Numbered from the stretch's first letter, positions 1-13,348 are shown. The stretch is DNA of 64,000 nucleotides from Myxococcota bacterium (GCA_965140415.1 OZ223209.1:5856001-5920000); one strand, 5' to 3'. A program made the numbers and translations. Notes: a model not told the origin generated them from the letters alone.

Positions 1-435
1 CAGGCAACCATAGTAGCAAGCCAGCGGCAGACCGCCCAGCGAGCGCTTGCGCTTCTGCGCCAGTTCCACCAGAACTTCCGTTCTGCTCAATAATTGCGAG
101 ATATGCACGATTTCGAAGGTGGGGTTGTATTCGGTCAGTCCATATTCTTCGGGTTGTTGCCTTAACTCGTGATCCGCCGCCATCAGGCGACTGTAGCAAG
201 CCGAGCAGGGGACCAGAAGATCTTCTCCTACTTGCTGAGCCAGTTGCAGATTACGCGCGCTTAATTTTGTGGCCAACTCATGGCTGGTCATGTGCGCGCT
301 GCTGGCGCCACAGCAATTCCAATCTGCCAATTCTACCAGTTCAATATCCAGGTAATGCGCCACCTCGCGCACGGACTCCTGATATTCACGAGCCGTGCCG
401 GTCAACGAGCACCCAGGATAGTAGCTCATGCGCAT
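1..435 (-). CDS. hdrB: Heterodisulfide reductase subunit B-like (CCG domain), partial; runs off the window start
   Basis: Not in the ORF track. Manual translation from ATG at 435: MRMSYYPGCSLTGTAREYQES...DWNCCGAS...VPCSACYSRL...ACYYGCL, the YYPGC, CCG and CxxC motifs of HdrB. It starts 2 nt after the hdrC stop, with an AAGGAGG RBS. Confidence 0.9.
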   Translation of the reverse strand, partial: MRMSYYPGCSLTGTAREYQESVREVAHYLDIELVELADWNCCGASSAHMTSHELATKLSARNLQLAQQVGEDLLVPCSACYSRLMAADHELRQQPEEYGLTEYNPTFEIVHISQLLSRTEVLVELAQKRKRSLGGLPLACYYGCL

Positions 436-437
436 GG

Positions 438-1001
438 CTACCCCTCCTTTCCGCTGCGTTTAAAGATTTCCCGCAGTTCTGCACGCGCTTTGATGCGATT
501 GGGCAGGAATTTCAATTTTCCGCGCCCGAACATGCGCATACCCAGTTTCATGTCGCCGAACAAGTCACCACTGCGCAGCTTGTAGGCTCCGATCATTCCC
601 AGTTCGTAGGTGCGTCCATGAGACTCTACGGAGTCTAAAAAGGCCTTATGAAACGCCACGATGCGCGGTTCCGTCGGTTTGTATCCGCGCCGCAGGCCGA
701 AGGAACGCAAGGTGTCCATGGCGGCGGCGATGTCGATATCGTTGGGGCAGCGCGTACTACAGGTTTCACAGGAGGCGCACAGCCAAATGGTGTGGCTCTG
801 CATCAGTTCCTCTTCCGCTCCGTAGGCACACAAACGGATAACTTCCATGGGCAGCAGATCGAAGAAAGAGGACACCGGGCATCCTGCCGAGCAGCGCCCG
901 CATTGATAACAGGCTTGCACGTCCACACCGCGCTCGCGCAATTCACGCAGCAGTTTGCGGCTGGCCTTGGCCGGATTGATAGCGGCGGTCTGTTCGCTCA
1001 T
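438..1001 (-). CDS. hdrC: Heterodisulfide reductase subunit C-like 2x[4Fe-4S] protein
   Basis: CYQCGRCSAGCP and WLCASCETCSTRCP motifs; adjacent to hdrB. Confidence 0.9.
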   Translation of the reverse strand: MSEQTAAINPAKASRKLLRELRERGVDVQACYQCGRCSAGCPVSSFFDLLPMEVIRLCAYGAEEELMQSHTIWLCASCETCSTRCPNDIDIAAAMDTLRSFGLRRGYKPTEPRIVAFHKAFLDSVESHGRTYELGMIGAYKLRSGDLFGDMKLGMRMFGRGKLKFLPNRIKARAELREIFKRSGKEG

Positions 1002-2551
1002 GGTTCTTCTCCCGACTGACCTGGCTGCCAGACCGGGAAACGCAGCGTAAAGCGCGCGCCTTCACCCGGATCGGACTGTACCCGGATCGTGCCTTTGTGC
1101 TCGCGCACGATGGCATAGGAAACCGAAAGACCCAGGCCGGTGCCTTCGCCTTGCGGTTTGGTTGTATAAAACGGATCGAAGATCTGGGGTAGCACCTCCG
1201 GGGTGATGCCCGGACCGTCATCTTGAATGACGACTTCGGCAAAGTCGTTCTGAGAACGCAGACGGCTGGAAATCGACAACGTACCTTTACCCTGCATGGC
1301 CTGGGCTGAATTGACGACGATGTTCATAAATACCTGGTTCAGCCGAGCGGGATTGCCCTGGATGTAACCCAGATCCTCTTGTAAATCGAGTTTCAACCGG
1401 ATGTTGTGGAACAGCGGCTGCATTTCCAATAATGCCAGCGTTTTGGTCACGATTTCGTTCAGTTCCATTTCGACCATGTCGTAAGCCGTCTGGTGAGAAA
1501 ACTCCAACAGATCCGCCACGATTACCTTGCAGCGTTCGGCTTCGTGGATGATGGTCTGAAGATCCGCTGCCAAGGGATGCTCCTCGCCCAGTTCCTCTTT
1601 GACCAGGTTGGCGTAGAGCATGATGCCGCTCATGGGGTTGTTGATTTCATGGGCCACACCGGCTGCAAGTCGTCCCAGCCCGGCCATTTTTTCCGACTGC
1701 AACAGCATCTGGTGGGTTTGTTGCAAATCTTCCTGGAACTTATGGATGACGCGCAGATCGGTGAAAATTCCGAAGGTGGCATGTTCCTGACCATGATCGT
1801 ATATGATGCCGCCGGAGAAACTCATCGGAATCAATTGGCCGTCTTTGGTGATGGCGGTCAGTTCATGCCGCAACAGTTTCCCCTTGCCGCCGTACTCGTC
1901 GCTGCGCATACGTCGCAGAATATCGCGCGCCTCTCCCTCCGGGTACAGGCGCGAAACATGTAGTGTTTCCAGTGCCTCCCGCTCGTCGTATCCCAATAGA
2001 CTTTGCGCACCCTGGTTAAAAAGAATCAGGCGGCCTTTCATGTCCGAGGCGATGATGCCATCGACCGAAGAGTCGATCAGGTTGTGGAAAAAGGAGTTGC
2101 GCCGCCGCAGTTCGCTTTCCAGTTCGATACGGTCGTTGATGTCGATCAGAATCACGGCGTAATTGTCGTTTTGCGAATCGGGGCGCATGAAGACCACTTC
2201 GACCGTACGCCTGCGCTCGTCTCCCTGACGACGCAAAGTCATTTCGTGGCGGAAGGATTCGTCGAACAAACGCTCGGAAAAGAACAAGCCGTTCTCGCCG
2301 CCAAGTACCGGATCGTCCGCAATGCGCAGCGCCTCAACCAAGGGCTCACCTGCCAGTTTCCCGTAAGCCATACCCAGAAAACGGCTGGCCGCCGGGTTGC
2401 CGTAGAGAATGCGGTGTTGATTGTCGATCACCAACACGCCGTTGGGCGTCTGCTCCAGAATCGTATACAGCATCAGGTTGGACCCCAACTCGTGCACCAG
2501 CTTGGAAAGCAGATTTTCCCCCACTGATGACATCGGTTGCGGATTCAACAT
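998..2551 (-). CDS. Cytoplasmic two-PAS sensor histidine kinase (NtrB-like)
   Basis: Two PAS-like segments, H-box GVAHEINNP, N-box QVFMNIVVNSAQAM, DDGPGI, FDPFYTTK and GTGLGL. No TM helix. Start moved to ATG 2551 to avoid overlap with the metF-like gene; ATGA overlap with hdrC. Confidence 0.88.
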   Translation of the reverse strand: MLNPQPMSSVGENLLSKLVHELGSNLMLYTILEQTPNGVLVIDNQHRILYGNPAASRFLGMAYGKLAGEPLVEALRIADDPVLGGENGLFFSERLFDESFRHEMTLRRQGDERRRTVEVVFMRPDSQNDNYAVILIDINDRIELESELRRRNSFFHNLIDSSVDGIIASDMKGRLILFNQGAQSLLGYDEREALETLHVSRLYPEGEARDILRRMRSDEYGGKGKLLRHELTAITKDGQLIPMSFSGGIIYDHGQEHATFGIFTDLRVIHKFQEDLQQTHQMLLQSEKMAGLGRLAAGVAHEINNPMSGIMLYANLVKEELGEEHPLAADLQTIIHEAERCKVIVADLLEFSHQTAYDMVEMELNEIVTKTLALLEMQPLFHNIRLKLDLQEDLGYIQGNPARLNQVFMNIVVNSAQAMQGKGTLSISSRLRSQNDFAEVVIQDDGPGITPEVLPQIFDPFYTTKPQGEGTGLGLSVSYAIVREHKGTIRVQSDPGEGARFTLRFPVWQPGQSGEEP

Positions 2552-2567
2552 GATGTATCCATCCGTT

Positions 2568-3440
2568 TCAGCGCCCGATCCGGTCCAGGAATTCCGGTAA
2601 ACGCAGACCCCAGCCCAGCGCATGCAACACGGCCCCCGCACAACGTTGTTGTATGTCTTTCATGAAATCGGCGGCGATTTCCACACCGGCCTGAGCCTTG
2701 ACCGGGGAGTCCATCATCCGCTTTAAATATTCCGTCGGTACGGAAGGCACCCCGGGCAGGTTGTCCAGGTAACGAATCATCGCTACCGACTTGAGCAGCA
2801 TGACGGTGGAGAATAGTTTCAATCCGGCATCTTCGGCTTTCTGGATGAACAGCTCGATGATGTTCAGATCGTAGGTTGGCCCCAATAGCACGAAGTCCAC
2901 GCCGTACTCTGCGTAACGCGCCAGTTCTTCGGCGTGCTTTCGATTTACCGAGTGGTCGTCGGATAGATCCAGACCTGCACCGATAGTGAACTCGGTACCG
3001 CCCTCCAACGCTTCACCACCCAAATCTTTTCCGTTGTTCAATGCGCCCACGGCTTGCAGCATGGTGTTCAGATCCAGATCGCCGCTGGTGCGCACCATGG
3101 GCTGATCGCCCCAGCTCGGGTCGATCCCTTCCTTTATAATGACGTTCCTCACTCCCAGCGCGTAAGCACTCAACAGATCGGCCTGTAAGGAAATCCGGTT
3201 ACGGTCGCGTCCGTTGATGACGATCAGTGGGTCCAGGTTGCTTTCCAGCAGCCGCAACGCCGGAGCCAGTGGAGACATGCGCATCACTGCATGTTCGCTG
3301 TCCGTTACCGCCACCGTGTCCACGCGTCCACGCAGTTGCAGCGTACGTTCCACAAAGGCGTCCAGTGTCGCGCCTTTGGGCGGATCTACCTCGGCTACCA
3401 GACAGAACTCGTTTTTCTTGATGAATTCGGCAAATGACAT
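2568..3440 (-). CDS. Methylenetetrahydrofolate reductase (MetF)-family protein with divergent active-site motifs
   Basis: AEVDPPKG, GRDRNRISLQADLLSAYALGVRN and GDQP motifs typical of the MTHFR family; AGGAGG RBS. Confidence 0.8.
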   Translation of the reverse strand: MSFAEFIKKNEFCLVAEVDPPKGATLDAFVERTLQLRGRVDTVAVTDSEHAVMRMSPLAPALRLLESNLDPLIVINGRDRNRISLQADLLSAYALGVRNVIIKEGIDPSWGDQPMVRTSGDLDLNTMLQAVGALNNGKDLGGEALEGGTEFTIGAGLDLSDDHSVNRKHAEELARYAEYGVDFVLLGPTYDLNIIELFIQKAEDAGLKLFSTVMLLKSVAMIRYLDNLPGVPSVPTEYLKRMMDSPVKAQAGVEIAADFMKDIQQRCAGAVLHALGWGLRLPEFLDRIGR

Positions 3441-3593
3441 CCAGTCTCCTCCTGCAAGAGTTGCAAGACACCGTGTACGACCGGATCGAGATCGCTTTGG
3501 AGTGGGGAACTGGAATACGCGAATGAGAGGTGCTTCCCTACATGAATGGGAATTCGCGCTAGTTCATGATTGCTAGCGTAATGCTAATGTTTT

Positions 3594-3622
3594 ACCGTAG
3601 CAGTAAAAAAGAACGAGGTCAA
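3594..3622 (-). promoter_or_regulatory. Putative sigma70 promoter of the metF-like/kinase/hdrCB operon
   Basis: Minus strand TTGACC-N17-TACGGT. Confidence 0.4.
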
Positions 3623-3683
3623 GCGAGTCTTTTGGATTAAAAATGAGTGGTCATTCATCTTTTCGAGAATGTATGATTGCGCG

Positions 3684-4451
3684 CTACTTCGGTTTGCTTG
3701 AATTGATGCAGCCGGATACCTGCTCGCAGGTCAAGGCACGGGAGAGGCAGTCGAGCAAACTTGCGTCGGCATCGACACCGATCTGGCGTTCGCAGTCGGT
3801 GGCGTCCAGGTAAACCGCGTCGGGCACGCAGCGCAGCAGGCGCGCGCAGGCTTTGGTGATTATTGAGGGCTGGGGCGTTGCAGTCGTTTGTACGGGTGCG
3901 ATCTTTCGGTCGGCTTCGCGTTTGCGCAAGCGTTCGATAGCGGCCCGCACCAGCGCCATGTTTTCTTTTCGCACACCCAGTTGAGCCACACTGCCCGAAC
4001 CGATATGATCGTCCGTTTCCTCTTTGTGCAGACGCAGCGATTTCCAGGAGGTCAGCCCCTGCAAACCTACGGTCACACTCTCGATCTTTTTCCAGGCAAA
4101 CTCCGCCTGCGATCCGTCGTCAAGATTTCCCACGCAGGCTACATTACCGCGCTCGTTCGTTTTTGCACAATTTGCATCGGCTTTGTAACCCCACTTCGCC
4201 CCGCTTTCATCCACGATCAATTCCATCTGCTTGCAGCGTTTGGTTCGTGACCAGAAGTTGCAGTTGTAGTCTTCCCAGGCGGCACGAAAGACGGTCAATG
4301 CTTCCGCTTTACTCATCTCGCCATATTGAGACTCGTTCTTATCGGTCAGAGAAGAGGGAAGCGAAATGCGCGCCGTATCCGTGGCGCAAGCGCAACATGC
4401 AAGCAGAAGAAGAACAAGCGGCAAGCGTAGCAGGTGGTTTGAAACTGGCAC
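3684..4451 (-). CDS. Hypothetical lipoprotein with C-terminal Cys-rich domain
   Basis: Hydrophobic stretch and lipobox-like LLLLACCAC; C-terminal CARLLRC..DC..DC..TC..GC. Start is uncertain (GTG 4451 chosen; ORF track begins at 4553). Confidence 0.55.
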   Translation of the reverse strand: MPVSNHLLRLPLVLLLLACCACATDTARISLPSSLTDKNESQYGEMSKAEALTVFRAAWEDYNCNFWSRTKRCKQMELIVDESGAKWGYKADANCAKTNERGNVACVGNLDDGSQAEFAWKKIESVTVGLQGLTSWKSLRLHKEETDDHIGSGSVAQLGVRKENMALVRAAIERLRKREADRKIAPVQTTATPQPSIITKACARLLRCVPDAVYLDATDCERQIGVDADASLLDCLSRALTCEQVSGCINSSKPK

Positions 4452-4630
4452 GATAAAATCCTTTGTATCGGCAATTCGAAAAGAGTCGGGCACGTCCGAT
4501 TGGAACGGATTGTAAACGCGGCCTCTTGTTCGTGCAAGCAAGAAGTCGCACAAGCACCTTCCCCCCGAAACGAGAAGCGATAGGTTCGCGCGATACTAAT
4601 GATAGCGGCTAGAACCGGGTAGTAAATATT

Positions 4631-5317
4631 CTACACGTAGGGTTGATCGTCTTTATAGGGTTTGGCGATCTGGATGCAGATATTGTAAATGTGGCGCATC
4701 ACTCGCTTGTGGAAACGGAATAACAATGCGGTGGCCACCGGGGTTCTAGATAAAGACGGGTCTTTCATCAGGTCGAACATGATGAAATCACAGCGCTTCG
4801 TATGAGGAATGACTTCATCGCAGATCTGCTGGCAGAGCTGGGCATCGTCCTGTTTGTACGCTTGGATCATACGTGGAAACGCGCTTGAAACCCAGGCTCG
4901 CTGTTGCTGGATATCCTTTGGGTATTCGTCGCCGAGGATCGTCACGCCTTTCAGCAACAATTTGAACATGTTCTTGGAGTAATCGCCGATGCGTTCCGCA
5001 TTCTTGATCAAACCCAGAAACATCATGCGACTGGGAATATCTGCGCCGGGTCGTGAGGAAGACATCGAAACCAACACTTCCCTGCGGATAGACTCTTCCA
5101 GGCGGTTCAATTCTTCGTCCTGCGCCACGACCTGAGTTCTGACTTCTTCTGTAATGGGAACACCATCCAACAAGATGGTCATAATCTGTTCGTAGAGCCG
5201 ATGCGAGATCACCAGCATGGACTCAAAATGTTCCGCCAAAGGATCGGTTCGTGATTCTTGAGCGTTCATGCCAAGCAACGTCGCGATCAGAGAAGGTTTT
5301 CTGATTTCAGCACACAT
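4631..5317 (-). CDS. PhoU-domain protein
   Basis: DEELNRLEESIR and AERIGDYSKN motifs plus a second helical repeat, characteristic of PhoU domains; no pst genes nearby. Confidence 0.75.
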   Translation of the reverse strand: MCAEIRKPSLIATLLGMNAQESRTDPLAEHFESMLVISHRLYEQIMTILLDGVPITEEVRTQVVAQDEELNRLEESIRREVLVSMSSSRPGADIPSRMMFLGLIKNAERIGDYSKNMFKLLLKGVTILGDEYPKDIQQQRAWVSSAFPRMIQAYKQDDAQLCQQICDEVIPHTKRCDFIMFDLMKDPSLSRTPVATALLFRFHKRVMRHIYNICIQIAKPYKDDQPYV

Positions 5318-7495: not shown

Positions 7496-7571
7496 GCGGG
7501 AGTAACTCAGTTGGTAGAGTGGAAGCTTCCCAAGCTTCAAGTCGCGGGTTCGAGTCCCGTCTCCCGCTCCA
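7496..7571 (+). tRNA. tRNA-Gly (anticodon CCC)
   Basis: GCGGGAG/CTCCCGC acceptor stem, D arm, GAAGC-TTCCCAA-GCTTC anticodon arm, GGTTCGAGTCC T arm, encoded 3' TCCA; 76 nt. Confidence 0.97.
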
Positions 7572-7993
7572 GTTCACCAATGAAACGGTCGTTTTAATGG
7601 CGATCGTTTTTTCCTTTTTATGTCTTCTCTCAATTAAACTCGAAACATGTTGTCCCAAGATTCTAGTTTTGATTGGTTTTAACTTATTATTAATTATGTA
7701 AAATTCTATAAAAAAACATGGAAATTTGCCGTATTATTACTGTAGAATATCTTTGTATGAAAGAGCTTCGCTGGAACCAGCGGCGAGAATTGTTTTTCCT
7801 GATGAAACAGGGATTCGGGACCATGCGGTTCCGGGTAGTCAAATAGTATGTTCTGAGGTATACTATTTGAATTATTTTACGAATGTCTTGCACTGGGGTA
7901 TAATCCGCCTTTGCGGGACTCTTCTTGAGTGGGGCTGGTTCAACTGAGGGAGCTAGAGTTAGAAACTTAGCGGTTGCCAGGATATACAGGTCA

Positions 7994-10900
7994 ATGAGAA
8001 ATCGTACTCTCCATTGGAGATTGATAGGGATTGCAATCGTCGGATGGTTTTGTCTATGCGGACTGCCGTTGGGGATTGCCCAGGAAAATGCAAAAGATGC
8101 AGTAGCGGCGCAAGCTGCTGAACCTCAAGCCGCACAAGTGCGGGAAACGCTTTTATTGCATTTTTCCGGTGATGGCGATGCTGAGCAAGCGGCTACAGGG
8201 TTGCAACTGTTGCTGTCCAGTCGTTTGCAGGGCAACCAGGATCTTTCTCTTGTCAACCGGCTGTTGGTGCTCGATGCGGCCAGTAAAGGACGTGTACTTA
8301 AAGGCAGAAGCCGCCTTTTTCGCAAGGATATCCCCTATCTGTGTTTGAAAACGGAATCCCGCCGTGCCGTGATTGGCTGGGTGGAATTGGATCTGGATGA
8401 AATCATCGTTACCCTGCGTGTATTCGATGGCGTCTCGGCGGAGAACCTGGCTTCCGTGGAATTGCGGGAGAACTACGCGCACCTGAGCAAGCTGGTGCAG
8501 CGTATGGCTGAATCGCTGGAACAACTTTTAGGGCGTAAAGTGCGGCTACCTGCCGCTCCTCCCAAAACGGAATCCATCGACCTGGAAGGATTGAAGCGGT
8601 TGGGGCAAGGCTGGCTTGCTCTGGAAAAGAAAGACCGCAATCCCGGTTTGTCCACGATGTTGGGTGCGCGCGATGAAGGCCTGGAAATCGGATCGGTAGT
8701 CGCTTCCTGGATCAATGAGAAAACGGCGCCCCTATTGGGGAAAAAGCTGACGAAATGGACGAAAGCCAACCAGGCGCTGTTGGCGGATCTGAGCGAGCAA
8801 CCCAAGCAGGCGTTGGAGTTATACGAATCAATCAAGCCGATCGGCAAACGCGGCTGGGAAATGGGAATTCGCCATGCTCGTCTGTTGTTACGCGAGAAAA
8901 AGTGGCCCCAGTTCAAAGCCTGGCTGAAAAAGCTGGGGAAAATTCAACCCAACGATGCGGAACTGGCCTTGCTAAACGGCTATCGCCTGATGAACGAGGG
9001 AAACAAGGCGCAGGCGTTGAAGTCTTGGGAAGCGGCCCTGTCCGGTGGAATCGAAAACCTGGAGGCTTTGCAAGCCTTGGCTCAAAACGCAGCGGCTGAA
9101 AACAACAAGTCGGAGGCTATTGAACTCTACACAAAGGCTGCACAACTGCTAAGCCGCCGGCATCGTAATGATAGCGCCAACGAGATGTTGTTATCTGCCT
9201 TGGAGCAGGGTGGACCGGAAACCCTGATGAACAAACTGTCTCTGCTGTCATTGACTCCAACCCAGAAGGAACGCCTACAGCGCTATACCGCAGCTCGTCA
9301 TACCTCGAAAACACAGGCCGATGTTTTCCTGGAAGCTCGCCAGGCCCGTCTGGCCGGAAAAGTCGCCGAGGCAGAAGAGCTGCTTTACAATGCCGCAGGG
9401 ATCGATGCCAAAAGCTTTGAGCCGAATCTTGCCGCAGGAAACTTCTTCTCCAATGAGAAACTGGATATCGACAAATCCATCCGGTTTTATGGGGCTGCCG
9501 TAAAGGCCAGCGACAACGATCCGCGCGCGTTGCTCGGATTGGCGTTAAGCTATCAGCGGGCGGATTTTTGCAACAAGGCGCAGGAGTCCTTCGAGAAACT
9601 ATTGAAGATCATTCCGGAAAACAGGCGCATTCAGCTTCTGCATACGGAAATGCTGCGAAATTGTGGACAAGCGGAAAAGGCCGAACAGCGAGTACAGCAA
9701 ATCGTGCAGCAGGATGCAGATTATGCTCCGGCTCTCATTAAGCTCGTTTCCTACTATGATATCACGCGCGACGCTCAGAAGCGCAACGCGGCCTTGAATG
9801 AGTTGAAATCTCTGGATGCGCGTGAATACCTGCTGCTGACCAAAGAACCGAAGGTCGTCAAGACGGAAGCGAAAAAAGAGAAGAAACCGCGCAAAAAGCG
9901 AACTCCGGTCAAGGTTCAATTCCCGATTACGAAAAATCTGATGAAAGCCGTCCCGACCGGTTTGGAACGCGTGGCGCTTGTCAGTAAAGATCGCCTGGAA
10001 ATGGGCTTTCTGGATCGTGTTTTCAATTGGCTCTTTTCCTTGTGGCGTATGAATCCTAAGCCTATCGGCAAGGATCTGGCCGCATTGATAAGCAATGAAG
10101 CCAAGTTGGTTCAGGATTCGGAAATCGCGGATATGATCCGGATTTATCCGGGGATGCGTCCTTTCCGTCCTGATAGTTTCGATAAGGTGACTGCTAAGTT
10201 CGACCTGAATGCGGTCGTACTTTACGATCTGGTGCAGCGCAAACAGGACGGCATGGATGTGGATCTGTACTGCTTCGTTCGCGGAGGCAGCGAAGTGCTC
10301 TATACCAGCGGACGGGTTTCCTTCAATTCGGAAAGGTTGCAAAAACGCAACGCGGGTATCGTGATTCCGCCTCTGCTGATGGTCGTGCTGATTGCCGGGT
10401 TGATTTTCTGGCGGCGTATGGGTGGTTTCGGTCGCGTGCGAGTGGAAATCAAATACGATCAGAAATTCGAGGAAGGATACTTCCTTGTGCGCTTGTCCAA
10501 GCGCAATACCAGTCAGCCTTTCCCTGTCGAGAAATTGAAGGGCATTGAATTCGACAGCAACCGTTCGGAAACGGAATTGAAAATTCGTTCGGTTTTCAAA
10601 TCCCGTTCTCCGCTGGTCACCGTTACGTCACTGAACGAAGCGAACCTGTATCGCGTGCCGCCGGGTAAGTATTTCGTTTTCGTGACCGGAATCATGTTCG
10701 ATTTGAAAACCCGTCAGCCGATCGGCACCTATGAAGTGACTCGGGAAACCGAGGTCGAAAAAGACCGCACCAGCGAAGTTCGCGTCAATATGGAAATTAC
10801 GGAAGCGTATGTCGAAGTGCGCGTCACTCAGGAAGTGATGGTTACGAAAACCGTAACGGAAACGGAAGACGGCGAAAGCAAGGAAGTGGAGCAGCAGGTT

Positions 10901-13348
10901 CTGCAACACCAGGAAATCGGTGGTGCGACGGTTGAAGTCAATAACGATGCCGCGCTGACCAAGGTGACGATCGAGGGTGAACCGGTTACCTATTATTTTG
11001 GCCTGGGAACCTATCAGATCAAAGCGAGTTACAACGATCTGGCAGCCGTTCATAATCTGAAAATCGAGGATACGACTCCCAAACTGATCGAGTTGAAACT
11101 GGTTGCCAAGAGCAAGGCAACCCTGGCGGCGTCGCCGCTTTCGCTGGATATGGATATGGATATGGGAGCGCCGATGGCGGATGTCAATGCCGAATTGAGC
11201 ATGGAAGACCTGTTAAGTAACAGTGATTCCAGTACGCCCACGGCATCCTCTTTCGACAAGCGCCCGGGCTCCAAAACGGAACCACCACAACCCATTGAAT
11301 TGTCCGATGATATCCTGACCGGACCCATCCCGACCATCACGCATGGTGCGCCACCCATCAACCCCGGTGCCGGTGATGCATCCCGTGGCCCGGTGGATCT
11401 GGAAGATGTCTTCGAAACATCGCGTGAAAGCGAACTGGAAAAGCTGTTCGAAGCGACCAGCGAATTGACCCCGGAGGCGGCTCGGGAGCAGTACCTCAAG
11501 CACGCCCGCGAAATGCAGCAGGCTCGCCGTTTCGACGAAGCGGCGGAATTGTTCATGCGCGCCGGGATGTACGATCAGGCCGCCGAGATGTGTCAGCGTA
11601 GTGGCAATCAACGTCTGACTTACAAAGTGTATGGCTATAACTACTTGAATTCAGGCAGCTTCCGCGAAGCGGTCGAAATGTTCAAATACGCCGATGAGCC
11701 ACTGCTGGAAGCGGAAGCCTTGGAAGGGCTGCGGCTGGTAGATGAAGCGAATCTGAAACGCGGTATCTACCACGAGCAGAGAGGCGATATCAGTCGCGCG
11801 TTGGATTATTACGAAAAGGCCGGAAACTGGGAGCATATCGGCGAGTTGCACGACCGCTTGCAGAATTTCCAACAGGCCGGAGAAGCTTTCTTCAGGGCGC
11901 GCAAGTACGAAAAAGCCGGAGATTGCTTCCTGCAAAGCCAGGATATCAAAAGCGCCGCCAAAGCATTTGAAATGGATGCTCAGTACATGCGGGCGGCAGA
12001 GTTGTACATGCAGTTGGGACCGAACGTCAAGATCTTCAGCTTGCTGGAAAAGGCCGGGCGTCACTGTGAAGCGGCGGAAGGCTACAAGAAGCACGGCCTG
12101 CTTGATGAAGCCGTGCATGCCTGTCAGCAAGTGGACCCCAGTAAAGAAGATTACCTGAAAGCCGCCCTGATCATGGGCAAAATCTTTATCGAGAAAAACG
12201 AACAGACCCTGGCGCGCAGTGTCTACGCCAAGGCGGTTGAAAACGCCAATATCACACAAGAAAAAATCGAAAGCTATTATGAGTTTGGCGTACTGATCCA
12301 GGAACAGGGTTTGATTCACGAAGCGAATGCGCTGTTCGAAAAACTGCAAACCGTCAAATACAACTATGCAGATGTGACTATTCGCATCCAGAATCTGAGC
12401 GAACGCATCGAGCAGGAACGCAAGGCTTACGGTACAGTGCCGCCTCCTGGAACGATTCCGCCCTTCCCCGGTTACCGGACGGCATCCACGGCGGCCAACT
12501 CTCTGTATCAAACGCCTACACCTTCCGCCGGTCAAACTCCGGTTTCCAGCCGCTACGTTTTCGAAAAAGAGCTGGGACGCGGCGCGATGGGTATTGTGTA
12601 CAAAGCCAAAGATACGGCGTTGGATCGTGTCGTCGCCTATAAAACGGTAAGTAACGCCATTAAGGAAAACCCGGCTTCGTTGAAGTATTTCCTTTCCGAG
12701 GCCAAGTCGTTGGCGGCGTTGAATCACGGCAACATCGTTACCGTATTCGACGTCGGACAGGAAGCGGACAACTTCTTCATCACCATGGAATACGTCGACG
12801 GGCGTTCTTTGGGCGACTTCATCATGGACAAAGGGCGGCTCACCATGAAAAACTGTGTGGTGATCGCGACCAAGATCTGTAACGCCTTGGAATATGCACA
12901 TAAAAACAATATCGTGCATCGCGACATCAAGCCGTCGAACATCATGATATCCAATAGCGGCGAAGTGAAAATCATGGACTTCGGCCTGGCCAAGATTATG
13001 ACCGAAGCGGTTATGGACAAAACCGTTGTGCGTGGCACGCCCCTGTATATGTCGCCTGAACAGGTGGAAGGCGTCGGTGTGGGACATCGCGCGGATCTGT
13101 ACTCTTTCGGAGTGACACTCTTCGAGATGGCTACCGGAACGTTGCCGTTTACCAAGGGCGATATCGCGTACCATCATTTGCATACTCCGCCGCCATCACC
13201 CGTCCGGTACAATCCATCCATTCCGGAAGGTTTGGAAAAGATCATTCTGAAGATGCTGGAAAAGACGCCGGAAGACCGTTACCAGAGTGCAACGGACATC
13301 AAGCGGGATCTGCAACCTATCCGGGAAGCCCTGCTGAGCGGCTCATGA
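7994..13348 (+). CDS. Large membrane Ser/Thr (Hanks-type) protein kinase with TPR-like repeats
   Basis: N-terminal signal-like segment, TPR-like region, single TM GIVIPPLLMVVLIAGLIFWRR, cytoplasmic helical repeats, C-terminal kinase with GRGAMG, VAYK, HRDIKPSN, DFG and GTPLYMSPE. Start uncertain. Confidence 0.88.
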   Translation: MRNRTLHWRLIGIAIVGWFCLCGLPLGIAQENAKDAVAAQAAEPQAAQVRETLLLHFSGDGDAEQAATGLQLLLSSRLQGNQDLSLVNRLLVLDAASKGRVLKGRSRLFRKDIPYLCLKTESRRAVIGWVELDLDEIIVTLRVFDGVSAENLASVELRENYAHLSKLVQRMAESLEQLLGRKVRLPAAPPKTESIDLEGLKRLGQGWLALEKKDRNPGLSTMLGARDEGLEIGSVVASWINEKTAPLLGKKLTKWTKANQALLADLSEQPKQALELYESIKPIGKRGWEMGIRHARLLLREKKWPQFKAWLKKLGKIQPNDAELALLNGYRLMNEGNKAQALKSWEAALSGGIENLEALQALAQNAAAENNKSEAIELYTKAAQLLSRRHRNDSANEMLLSALEQGGPETLMNKLSLLSLTPTQKERLQRYTAARHTSKTQADVFLEARQARLAGKVAEAEELLYNAAGIDAKSFEPNLAAGNFFSNEKLDIDKSIRFYGAAVKASDNDPRALLGLALSYQRADFCNKAQESFEKLLKIIPENRRIQLLHTEMLRNCGQAEKAEQRVQQIVQQDADYAPALIKLVSYYDITRDAQKRNAALNELKSLDAREYLLLTKEPKVVKTEAKKEKKPRKKRTPVKVQFPITKNLMKAVPTGLERVALVSKDRLEMGFLDRVFNWLFSLWRMNPKPIGKDLAALISNEAKLVQDSEIADMIRIYPGMRPFRPDSFDKVTAKFDLNAVVLYDLVQRKQDGMDVDLYCFVRGGSEVLYTSGRVSFNSERLQKRNAGIVIPPLLMVVLIAGLIFWRRMGGFGRVRVEIKYDQKFEEGYFLVRLSKRNTSQPFPVEKLKGIEFDSNRSETELKIRSVFKSRSPLVTVTSLNEANLYRVPPGKYFVFVTGIMFDLKTRQPIGTYEVTRETEVEKDRTSEVRVNMEITEAYVEVRVTQEVMVTKTVTETEDGESKEVEQQVLQHQEIGGATVEVNNDAALTKVTIEGEPVTYYFGLGTYQIKASYNDLAAVHNLKIEDTTPKLIELKLVAKSKATLAASPLSLDMDMDMGAPMADVNAELSMEDLLSNSDSSTPTASSFDKRPGSKTEPPQPIELSDDILTGPIPTITHGAPPINPGAGDASRGPVDLEDVFETSRESELEKLFEATSELTPEAAREQYLKHAREMQQARRFDEAAELFMRAGMYDQAAEMCQRSGNQRLTYKVYGYNYLNSGSFREAVEMFKYADEPLLEAEALEGLRLVDEANLKRGIYHEQRGDISRALDYYEKAGNWEHIGELHDRLQNFQQAGEAFFRARKYEKAGDCFLQSQDIKSAAKAFEMDAQYMRAAELYMQLGPNVKIFSLLEKAGRHCEAAEGYKKHGLLDEAVHACQQVDPSKEDYLKAALIMGKIFIEKNEQTLARSVYAKAVENANITQEKIESYYEFGVLIQEQGLIHEANALFEKLQTVKYNYADVTIRIQNLSERIEQERKAYGTVPPPGTIPPFPGYRTASTAANSLYQTPTPSAGQTPVSSRYVFEKELGRGAMGIVYKAKDTALDRVVAYKTVSNAIKENPASLKYFLSEAKSLAALNHGNIVTVFDVGQEADNFFITMEYVDGRSLGDFIMDKGRLTMKNCVVIATKICNALEYAHKNNIVHRDIKPSNIMISNSGEVKIMDFGLAKIMTEAVMDKTVVRGTPLYMSPEQVEGVGVGHRADLYSFGVTLFEMATGTLPFTKGDIAYHHLHTPPPSPVRYNPSIPEGLEKIILKMLEKTPEDRYQSATDIKRDLQPIREALLSGS

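Follow-up and report, generated by a model that had tools for sequence, protein, structure and literature searches.

A divergent MetF paralogue and two-component genes in a type IV methylenetetrahydrofolate reductase operon of Myxococcota and Desulfocapsaceae: a candidate accessory subunit

What is a homologue of methylenetetrahydrofolate reductase (MTHFR) with an altered folate site doing in one operon with a sensor histidine kinase and heterodisulfide reductase subunits? The question is raised by a stretch of 64,000 nucleotides (nt) from the genome of a Myxococcota bacterium (GCA_965140415.1 OZ223209.1:5856001-5920000), hereafter the window, in which four minus-strand open reading frames (ORFs) fill positions 1-3440: a metF-like gene, the kinase gene HK1, hdrC and hdrB. 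Here we report that the MetF-like protein belongs to a separate clade of MetF paralogues, termed MetF2, and that its operon continues beyond the window edge into a full set of genes for a type IV MTHFR with a canonical MetF of its own. The explanation that we tentatively prefer, without giving it even odds, is that MetF2 serves as a non-catalytic accessory of a kinase-regulated Hdr-MetVF complex. Two other readings, in which MetF2 would be a sensing partner of the kinase or a still-active enzyme, are weighed along with the evidence that bears on them.

Extent and content of the operon

The four genes are packed as an earlier note on this DNA had read them. The stop codon of the metF-like gene (TGA) is followed after 16 nt by the ATG that we take as the start of HK1, HK1 and hdrC overlap in ATGA, and the TAG of hdrC is separated by 2 nt from the ATG of hdrB. 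HK1 is also the soluble two-PAS kinase that had been described: its two PAS domains precede HisKA (1.1e-13) and HATPase_c (3.4e-27) domains in Pfam, and it contains no hydrophobic 19-residue stretch (Kyte-Doolittle maximum 1.0) and hence no segment resembling a transmembrane helix. The H-box histidine, His301, lies within AHEINNP, and the H, N and G box residues are invariant across 13 aligned sequences. The HdrC-like protein matches the NCBIfam model of CoB-CoM heterodisulfide reductase subunit C (5e-19), though with a score under the cut-off of that family. The features within the window are as follows.

3441..3683, minus strand: intergenic stretch of 243 nt, presumed promoter region of the operon
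3446..3452, minus strand: GGAGGAG ribosome-binding site, 5 nt from the metF-like ATG (direct sequence reading)
2568..3440, minus strand: MetF-like paralogue (MetF2, window subclade), 290 aa; Pfam MTHFR 39.5 bits, cut-off 24
998..2551, minus strand: HK1, soluble sensor histidine kinase, 517 aa, PAS, PAS, HisKA and HATPase_c (Pfam)
438..1001, minus strand: hdrC-like Fe-S subunit, 187 aa; Pfam Fer4_17 and Fer4_8
1..435, minus strand: hdrB, first 145 codons (full gene 288 aa); Pfam CCG domain

The first base of the window (G000:C1:5856001, in a single-contig genome of 5.98 Mb) cuts hdrB. We read 12 kb beyond it and found that the operon carries six more genes on the same strand.

G000:C1:5851906-5855565, minus strand: hdrA, 1219 aa, two flavin/NAD-type domains and many Fe-S motifs (Pfam Fer4 with Pyr_redox_2)
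G000:C1:5851448-5851798, minus strand: mvhD (Pfam FlpD)
G000:C1:5850783-5851451, minus strand: metV (Pfam DUF5981)
G000:C1:5849860-5850786, minus strand: canonical metF, in ATGA overlap with metV (Pfam MTHFR, 155 bits)
G000:C1:5849423-5849809, minus strand: CheY-like stand-alone receiver, 128 aa (Pfam)
G000:C1:5847882-5849435, minus strand: hybrid kinase, receiver-PAS-HisKA-HATPase_c (Pfam)

The order of the ten genes is metF2, PAS kinase, hdrC, hdrB, hdrA, mvhD, metV, canonical metF, receiver, hybrid kinase, and by Pfam the type IV MTHFR gene set hdrC-hdrB-hdrA-mvhD-metV-metF is complete on consecutive minus-strand genes in the order of Moorella. The earlier note had held that the neighbourhood is not the metF-hdr arrangement known from acetogens; this impression was an artefact of the window edge. 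A second, canonical metF, which the note had raised as a possibility, exists twice: three genes of the genome match PF02219, and two of them are canonical metF, one in this operon and one in a second Hdr-MetVF cluster described below. None of the ten genes encodes a DNA-binding regulator.

Fold and active site of MetF2

The fold of the MetF-like protein in its AlphaFold2 model (mean predicted local distance difference test score, pLDDT, 92.3) is clearly predicted to be the (beta-alpha)8 barrel of MTHFR. In a Foldseek search of the PDB the best matches listed were all MTHFRs, with template-modelling (TM) scores of about 0.67-0.75; the first was the Thermus entry 8eac (E 3.9e-13, TM 0.73), and E. 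coli entries followed with E-values of 1e-8 to 1e-9. The PF02219 match spans residues 5-267 and is weak (39.5 bits, or 38.4 in the genome scan, with 155 for the canonical copy of the operon). The single protein found no match among PDB sequences in phmmer, and MTHFR entries were reached only with the family profile.

The motifs AEVDPPK (from residue 16), RDRN (78), GIDP (105) and LLGP (185) can be read in the protein, in agreement with the earlier statement that E-x-x-PPK and RDRN are kept and that KEGIDP and LLGP stand at altered sites. With MetF from the annotated E. coli K-12 genome as reference (Glu28, Asp120, Gln183, Phe223), Glu17 corresponds to Glu28, Ile106 to Asp120, Leu186-Gly187 to Thr182-Gln183 and Leu225 to Phe223. 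This mapping was obtained in three alignments, namely BLASTP with the canonical MetF of the operon, a profile alignment with human and Thermus MTHFRs, and MAFFT L-INS-i with the E. coli protein. Thus, the equivalent of the catalytic glutamate is retained (in 10 of 10 members of the window subclade, defined below) and the Asp120 carboxylate and Gln183 equivalents are lost, as had been claimed. A one-residue insertion that would instead place the aspartate of GID on Asp120 was not seen, and the mapping of Ile106 is gap-free because the spacing from a conserved glycine to the next Gly-Asp equals that of canonical small MetFs. The aspartate one residue further on, Asp107, is invariant in the subclade, and 20 of 21 aligned close homologues have a carboxylate there; in the model it lies in the loop right after strand 99-103 (pLDDT 83 for residues 101-110 and 66 for residues 111-120).

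The accessible part of the E. coli work describes what these side chains do (PMC11094777). Glu28 is the proposed catalytic acid, and activity in E28Q falls to about 0.01%; Asp120 binds pterin N3 and the 2-amino group in bidentate fashion, and D120N keeps 0.3% of kcat with Km raised more than 40-fold; Gln183 contacts N8-H and N1, and in Q183A/E the Km for folate rises more than 250-fold. The same three residues together with Phe223 are termed catalytically essential in the available text of PMC11868366. In comparison with E. coli MetF, the window protein shares the predicted MTHFR barrel and the conserved catalytic glutamate and differs by a low identity (about 12-13% in this pair) and by Ile, Gly and Leu in place of Asp120, Gln183 and Phe223; no sign of NADH use by the window protein was seen in this comparison.

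A pocket changed in this way bears on the first rival explanation, in which MetF2 would be a still-active reductase or dehydrogenase with a shifted active site, providing a second site for methylene-tetrahydrofolate (methylene-THF) or a related pterin or, alternatively, the site of the second electron acceptor of the type IV enzyme. The invariant glutamate and Asp107 are consistent with it. Two facts in the accessible part of PMC11094777 point the same way: Q183E has an unchanged kcat in E. coli, and the flavin-free mycobacterial Mfr is active despite a glutamate at the Asp120 position. In the window subclade, however, the replacements at the Asp120 and Gln183 positions are accompanied by changes at many other conserved positions, and the family score is only a fraction of that of the canonical copy. 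The neighbouring genes, discussed below, bear on this explanation as well.

MetF2 clade and its gene neighbours

A database search returned 668 homologues of the MetF-like protein at E<=0.001; among the 120 listed, most are 290-297 aa long and about 60% identical to it, and several are named Desulfobulbales. The homologue P0029 of Desulfocastanea catecholica, a named species, has 62% identity. Orthologues with 63-71% identity were found in four of 40 relatives of the window genome (G001, G002, G006, G009), and further ones in five members of a 121-genome sample of the Desulfobulbales, the order to which a Desulfocapsaceae metagenome-assembled genome (MAG) belongs. The ten-gene order is common to all 10 orthologue-bearing genomes; nine, that of the window included, have a complete cluster, and in one the contig stops within hdrA. 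The adjacency of MetF2 and the kinase, on which the earlier proposal depended, accordingly holds in 10 of 10. All ten frames are intact, and identity remains at 55-71% across two phyla, the carriers being a Myxococcota group and Desulfocapsaceae (Thermodesulfobacteriota). In the tree, both the MetF2 paralogue and the canonical MetF divide along these same two groups. These data make it very improbable that MetF2 is a decaying duplicate without function. Lost catalytic residues and a weak family score would fit such a relic; against it stand the intact frames and cross-phylum identity, the homologues of similar length and identity, the strong ribosome-binding site, the confident fold model (pLDDT 92) and the constant presence of enzyme genes beside MetF2.

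A tree of 98 MetF sequences from the fetched loci plus E. coli MetF (IQ-TREE quick search, LG+G4) separated a MetF2 clade of 38 sequences, which includes the window protein, from a clade of 42 canonical MetFs of the Hdr type; each has a support of 100 in the Shimodaira-Hasegawa-like approximate likelihood ratio test (SH-aLRT). Within MetF2, the window subclade (10 sequences, SH-aLRT 100) has a stem branch of 1.25 changes per site, and 25 sequences form an hdrA-adjacent clade (SH-aLRT 95). The branching of three basal sequences (L104, L115, L119) is not settled; their neighbour is a PAS kinase, followed by hdrCBA. Residues at the two key positions separate the groups as follows.

MetV-partnered canonical MetF (54 sequences): Asp120 position, Asp 54; Gln183 position, Gln 54
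Non-window MetF2 (28 sequences): Asp120 position, Glu 22, Asp 3, Val 2, Gln 1; Gln183 position, Pro 22, Gln 3, Asn 2, Thr 1
Window subclade (10 sequences): Asp120 position, Ile 4, Leu 1, His 5; Gln183 position, Gly 10 (Gly187 in the window protein)

MetF2 departs from the canonical copies at many further positions that are at least 90% conserved in the latter; those aligned with E. coli Lys172 and His273 are among them.

A metV gene directly upstream is missing for 37 of the 38 MetF2 genes (the exception is L115), and each of the 34 complete MetF2 clusters that we examined contains canonical metVF as well; therefore, MetF2 never substitutes for MetF. Immediately downstream of MetF2 lies hdrA in 25 of the 38 cases. 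An example is the second cluster of the Desulfocapsaceae MAG (L042), whose MetF2 of 290 aa is 31% identical to the window protein and whose order is a divergent PAS sigma-54 activator, hdrC, a CCG gene, MetF2, hdrA, mvhD, metV, canonical metF, receiver, two small ORFs, a PAS-PAS kinase and a hybrid kinase. With this MetF2 as a query against 401 genomes from the phylum, hdrA was directly next in 29 of the 30 best loci, and a residue other than Gln occupied the Gln183 position in 29 of these 30. Use of the 151 of 401 genomes with matches at E<=1e-55 as a census of MetF2 was rejected, the weaker matches being canonical, MetV-partnered MetFs. When loci were extended, MetF2 preceded hdrA in 18 of 20, and 16 of those 18 contained the full series MetF2-hdrA-mvhD-metV-metF-receiver, a gap, PAS kinase and hybrid kinase. 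Genes for hdrCB adjoin MetF2 in L042, L089 and L092; in 14 hdrA-adjacent loci, no CCG- or HdrC-like Pfam match was found in the 39 larger of 117 same-strand ORFs within up to 3.8 kb upstream, and the genes there were unrelated.

Several loci were unusual in other ways. The Desulfocapsaceae MAG (G041) has six genes of the MTHFR family and two Hdr-MetVF clusters with MetF2 that differ in kind (C9:60394-61224 and C114:144091-144960), one of the window type and the other hdrA-adjacent with the divergent PAS sigma-54 activator. Tandem or nested arrays of Hdr, MvhD, MetV and MetF genes with receivers between them occur in L096 (G522), L098 (G536), L099 (G234) and L122 (G256), and L096 also holds a long-branch MetF that has GDFV and ITAP motifs and is accompanied by MetV.

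For the active-enzyme explanation these neighbourhoods cut both ways. Most MetF2 proteins outside the window subclade have Glu at the Asp120 position, as the active Mfr does, and in most hdrA-adjacent clusters no hdrCB was seen next to MetF2, which puts MetF2 in the place that hdrCB occupies in Moorella; by analogy with Mfr, the wider clade may be active. Against this explanation, 37 of 38 MetF2 genes have no metV partner, MetV being the electron-input subunit of this type of MetF, and MetF2 was never found without canonical metVF, whereas a simple isozyme might be. For the window subclade an ordinary isozyme appears unlikely because the Asp120 and Gln183 equivalents are lost, MetV is missing and MetF is never replaced, and we regard active catalysis by MetF2 as quite unlikely overall. 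A variant with MetF2 as the NADH-oxidising arm of the complex was given low weight, since Moorella HdrA is reported as the NADH site.

Signalling genes and the role of MetF2

The second rival explanation, close to the proposal of the earlier note, makes MetF2 a pseudoenzyme that would bind folate or flavin without turnover and report occupancy or redox state to HK1, which through the CheY-like receiver and the hybrid kinase would adjust the Hdr-MetVF reductase. Accessory co-sensors of histidine kinases are familiar, such as PhoU with PhoR and the transporter-like UhpC with UhpB, and a signal-binding MetF2 would be a non-kinase partner of this sort; we know of no co-sensor with a MetF fold. In favour of this explanation, a kinase gene is next to MetF2 in all 10 clusters with an orthologue (the gap being 16 nt in the window) and in the three basal lineages. 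The pocket has lost the Asp120 carboxylate and Gln183 equivalents and kept Glu28 and the neighbouring aspartate, and the long stem followed by strong conservation (55-71%, two phyla) resembles a change of function. A complex prediction for MetF2 with the PAS-PAS part of HK1 (residues 1-290; score 0.00, mark 0.32) counts neither way.

Wider association of MetF2 with signalling genes is also consistent with a co-sensor. A receiver gene follows canonical metF in nine of nine window-type clusters and 23 of 25 hdrA-adjacent clusters, that is, in 32 of 34 MetF2 clusters, compared with none of the four MetF2-less hdrCBA-mvhD-metVF clusters (L028, L048, L049, L100). Receiver, PAS kinase and hybrid kinase were all seen in 17 of the 25 hdrA-adjacent clusters (L042 included), most of the others being cut by locus ends. 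Against a co-sensor, 25 of the 38 MetF2 genes adjoin hdrA and have their kinases at least five genes off. In G361 and G503, the DNA around the MetF2 cluster, to about 12 kb downstream and about 20 kb upstream, yielded no match to a receiver or a kinase, which implies a kinase-independent role in those lineages. Conversely, receiver and kinase sets follow MetVF without MetF2 in L113 and L116/L122, and such genes also flank a metF of a MetVF cluster without MetF2 in the marine Chloroflexi DscP3 (PMC5736913, as far as its accessible text goes). With MetF2 present in some clusters that lack kinases, and kinases in some that lack MetF2, there is no general dependence of either part on the other. 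The comparison across the clade thus weakens kinase input as a general rule, and we consider a co-sensor possible but doubtful.

The receiver itself offers a clue to the output of the pathway. In searches for related proteins, P0201 (455 aa) proved to be a canonical MetF (GDH and QTQ motifs) fused to a receiver; its MetF part is 51% identical to the canonical MetF of the operon, and its receiver (Pfam 9e-23) is 38% identical to the operon receiver across the full 127 residues of the latter. A second canonical MetF, P0147, bears a receiver-like tail that Pfam does not call. Genes that are fused elsewhere usually act together physically. Because such receiver-MetF fusions (two proteins) exist, we infer MetF or its complex to be the target of the receiver, and the fusions suggest an output on the canonical reductase rather than on DNA. 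A search for longer or fused forms of the window protein gave 25 matches, all homocysteine-methyltransferase/MTHFR fusions of the canonical kind, and no fusion of MetF2 with a kinase or HdrA was seen among them.

That hdrA adjoins MetF2 in most of the clade, and that two clusters have no kinase, speaks on gene order for a subunit of the complex. In the mechanism that we propose with the reservation stated at the outset, the canonical MetVF-HdrCBA-MvhD set would carry out folate reduction or oxidation. MetF2, with its MTHFR barrel and catalytic glutamate but a remodelled pterin pocket, would most likely be a non-reducing accessory subunit of this enzyme; it might form a pair with MetF or bind to HdrA, and provide a ligand or flavin site instead of a second reductase. 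The two kinases and the receiver would form a phosphorelay for which the operon encodes no DNA-binding output and whose target, to judge from the receiver-MetF fusions found elsewhere, would most likely be the enzyme itself.

Several points weigh against MetF2 as a subunit of the complex. In all 10 members of the window subclade the neighbour is the kinase and not hdrA, as in the three basal lineages, and a partnership with the kinase would account for this adjacency equally well or better; the sample also shows a strong association of MetF2 with signalling genes. Asp107 may yet be able to bind a pterin. Identity between the window protein and E. coli MetF is low, at about 12-15%, so that the column mapping depends on motif anchors, and the tree comes from a quick search with SH-aLRT support alone. 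Finally, loci were chosen by their likeness to MetF2 and annotated by tblastn with proteins of this genome at fixed bit-score thresholds, so the counts are biased and weak relatives may be missed. The accessory and co-sensor roles also overlap, as a regulatory subunit of the complex could communicate with the kinase too.

A more far-reaching scenario may be sketched, which we regard as unlikely. A dedicated phosphorelay would control a central Wood-Ljungdahl enzyme at the protein level; MetF2, as a pseudo-reductase that binds folate or flavin, would report the loading or reduction of the one-carbon pool to the soluble PAS kinase; the phosphorylated receiver would, as the receiver-MetF fusions suggest, dock on the canonical MetF and switch Hdr-MetVF between reductive and oxidative operation; and the whole ten-gene cassette would have moved between phyla.

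Host, known systems and significance

Genes for dsrA and acetyl-CoA synthase are present, and the host therefore probably reduces sulfate or sulfite and has the Wood-Ljungdahl pathway. The dsrA gene scores above the family cut-off (G000:C1:1450456-1452729) and adjoins a dsrB-like gene. Acetyl-CoA synthase CdhC (231 bits, G000:C1:5829611-5830075) lies between the operon and a second, plain hdrC-hdrB-hdrA-mvhD-metV-metF cluster about 47 kb before the window (L028, G000:C1:5808300-5816300). This cluster, whose HdrA has 1492 aa, lacks MetF2, kinase and receiver genes; its MetF shares 59% identity with that of the operon and is followed by a 167-aa ICMT/PEMT-like methyltransferase ORF.

In the presumed promoter region (3441-3683), neither a sigma-54-like TGGC-N8-TGC match nor a convincing sigma-70-like promoter was found, the number of sigma-70-like sites not exceeding that in shuffled sequence; a terminator scan across the operon likewise performed no better than on shuffled sequence. 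Over the whole window, TGGC-N8-TGC occurs 33 times compared with 13.7 expected from shuffles, none of which reached 33, and this excess may be a codon-usage effect of GC-rich DNA. Upstream of the operon lie a 289-aa ORF (3684-4553, minus strand) with no Pfam or NCBIfam match, whose last 101 codons as a query gave no match listed in the loci of four relatives, and a 228-aa PhoU-domain protein (4631-5317, minus strand). Further on are a tRNA-Gly (CCC) at 7496-7571 and a 1807-aa ORF at 7925-13348 (both plus strand), the latter with a long repeat-rich N-terminal part and a Ser/Thr protein kinase-like C-terminal region (HRDIKPSN motif in the translation).

A type IV enzyme is by definition a single complex of these subunits in which NADH, methylene-THF and a second acceptor would be coupled. 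The best-known case is MetFV-HdrCBA-MvhD of Moorella thermoacetica (Mock et al. 2014, as cited in the accessible part of PMC8760232; also PMC5736913 and PMC6085437, likewise in part), for which PMC8760232 reports HdrA as the NADH site and the second electron acceptor as still unknown. The operon described here is alike in the order of hdrC, hdrB, hdrA, mvhD, metV and metF and in a canonical MetF that keeps the Asp120 and Gln183 equivalents. It differs in the extra MetF paralogue and PAS kinase before hdrC, in the receiver and hybrid kinase after metF, and in a host that is likely a sulfate or sulfite reducer and not an acetogen. E. coli MetF, used as the reference above, is classed as type I in PMC8760232 and as type 2 in PMC11868366, in the parts available of each.

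Two reported systems come closer. The accessible text of PMC5736913 describes for the Chloroflexi DscP3 an hdrABC-mvhD-metVF cluster with phoBR-like genes flanking metF_1; as here, a two-component system lies inside a Moorella-type Hdr-MetVF cluster and the genome has two non-identical MetF copies. Both DscP3 MetFs, however, have their own MetV, and that text reports no residue loss, whereas the extra copy here has no MetV and an altered pocket. For Candidatus Desulfobulbus rimicarensis, the available portion of PMC7117923 mentions 'two copies of metF', the second as a stand-in for MetV. Like the closest database homologues of the window protein, this genome with two metF genes comes from the Desulfobulbales; in that portion, unlike here, metV is said to be absent. 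A literature search covering few subscription journals found no paper that separates the MetF2 paralogue or links it to kinases, and within the same coverage the MetF2 residue pattern, the ties of MetF2 to hdrA and to a phosphorelay, and MetF-receiver fusions were not found described. The arrangement is a variant of the known type IV reductase in which the seemingly new parts are the MetF2 paralogue and the embedded two-component system.

Of the steps of the Wood-Ljungdahl pathway, the one catalysed by the Hdr-linked type IV methylene-THF reductase is, to our knowledge, understood least well, and for sulfate reducers with a reversed pathway the role of the enzyme has, as far as we know, been inferred from gene order only. 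An extra MetF-fold protein with a remodelled pocket, a dedicated phosphorelay and natural receiver-MetF fusions would offer handles on how this enzyme is built and controlled. The paralogue is labelled plainly as 'methylenetetrahydrofolate reductase' in public records, and therefore pathway reconstructions may miscount functional MetF copies.

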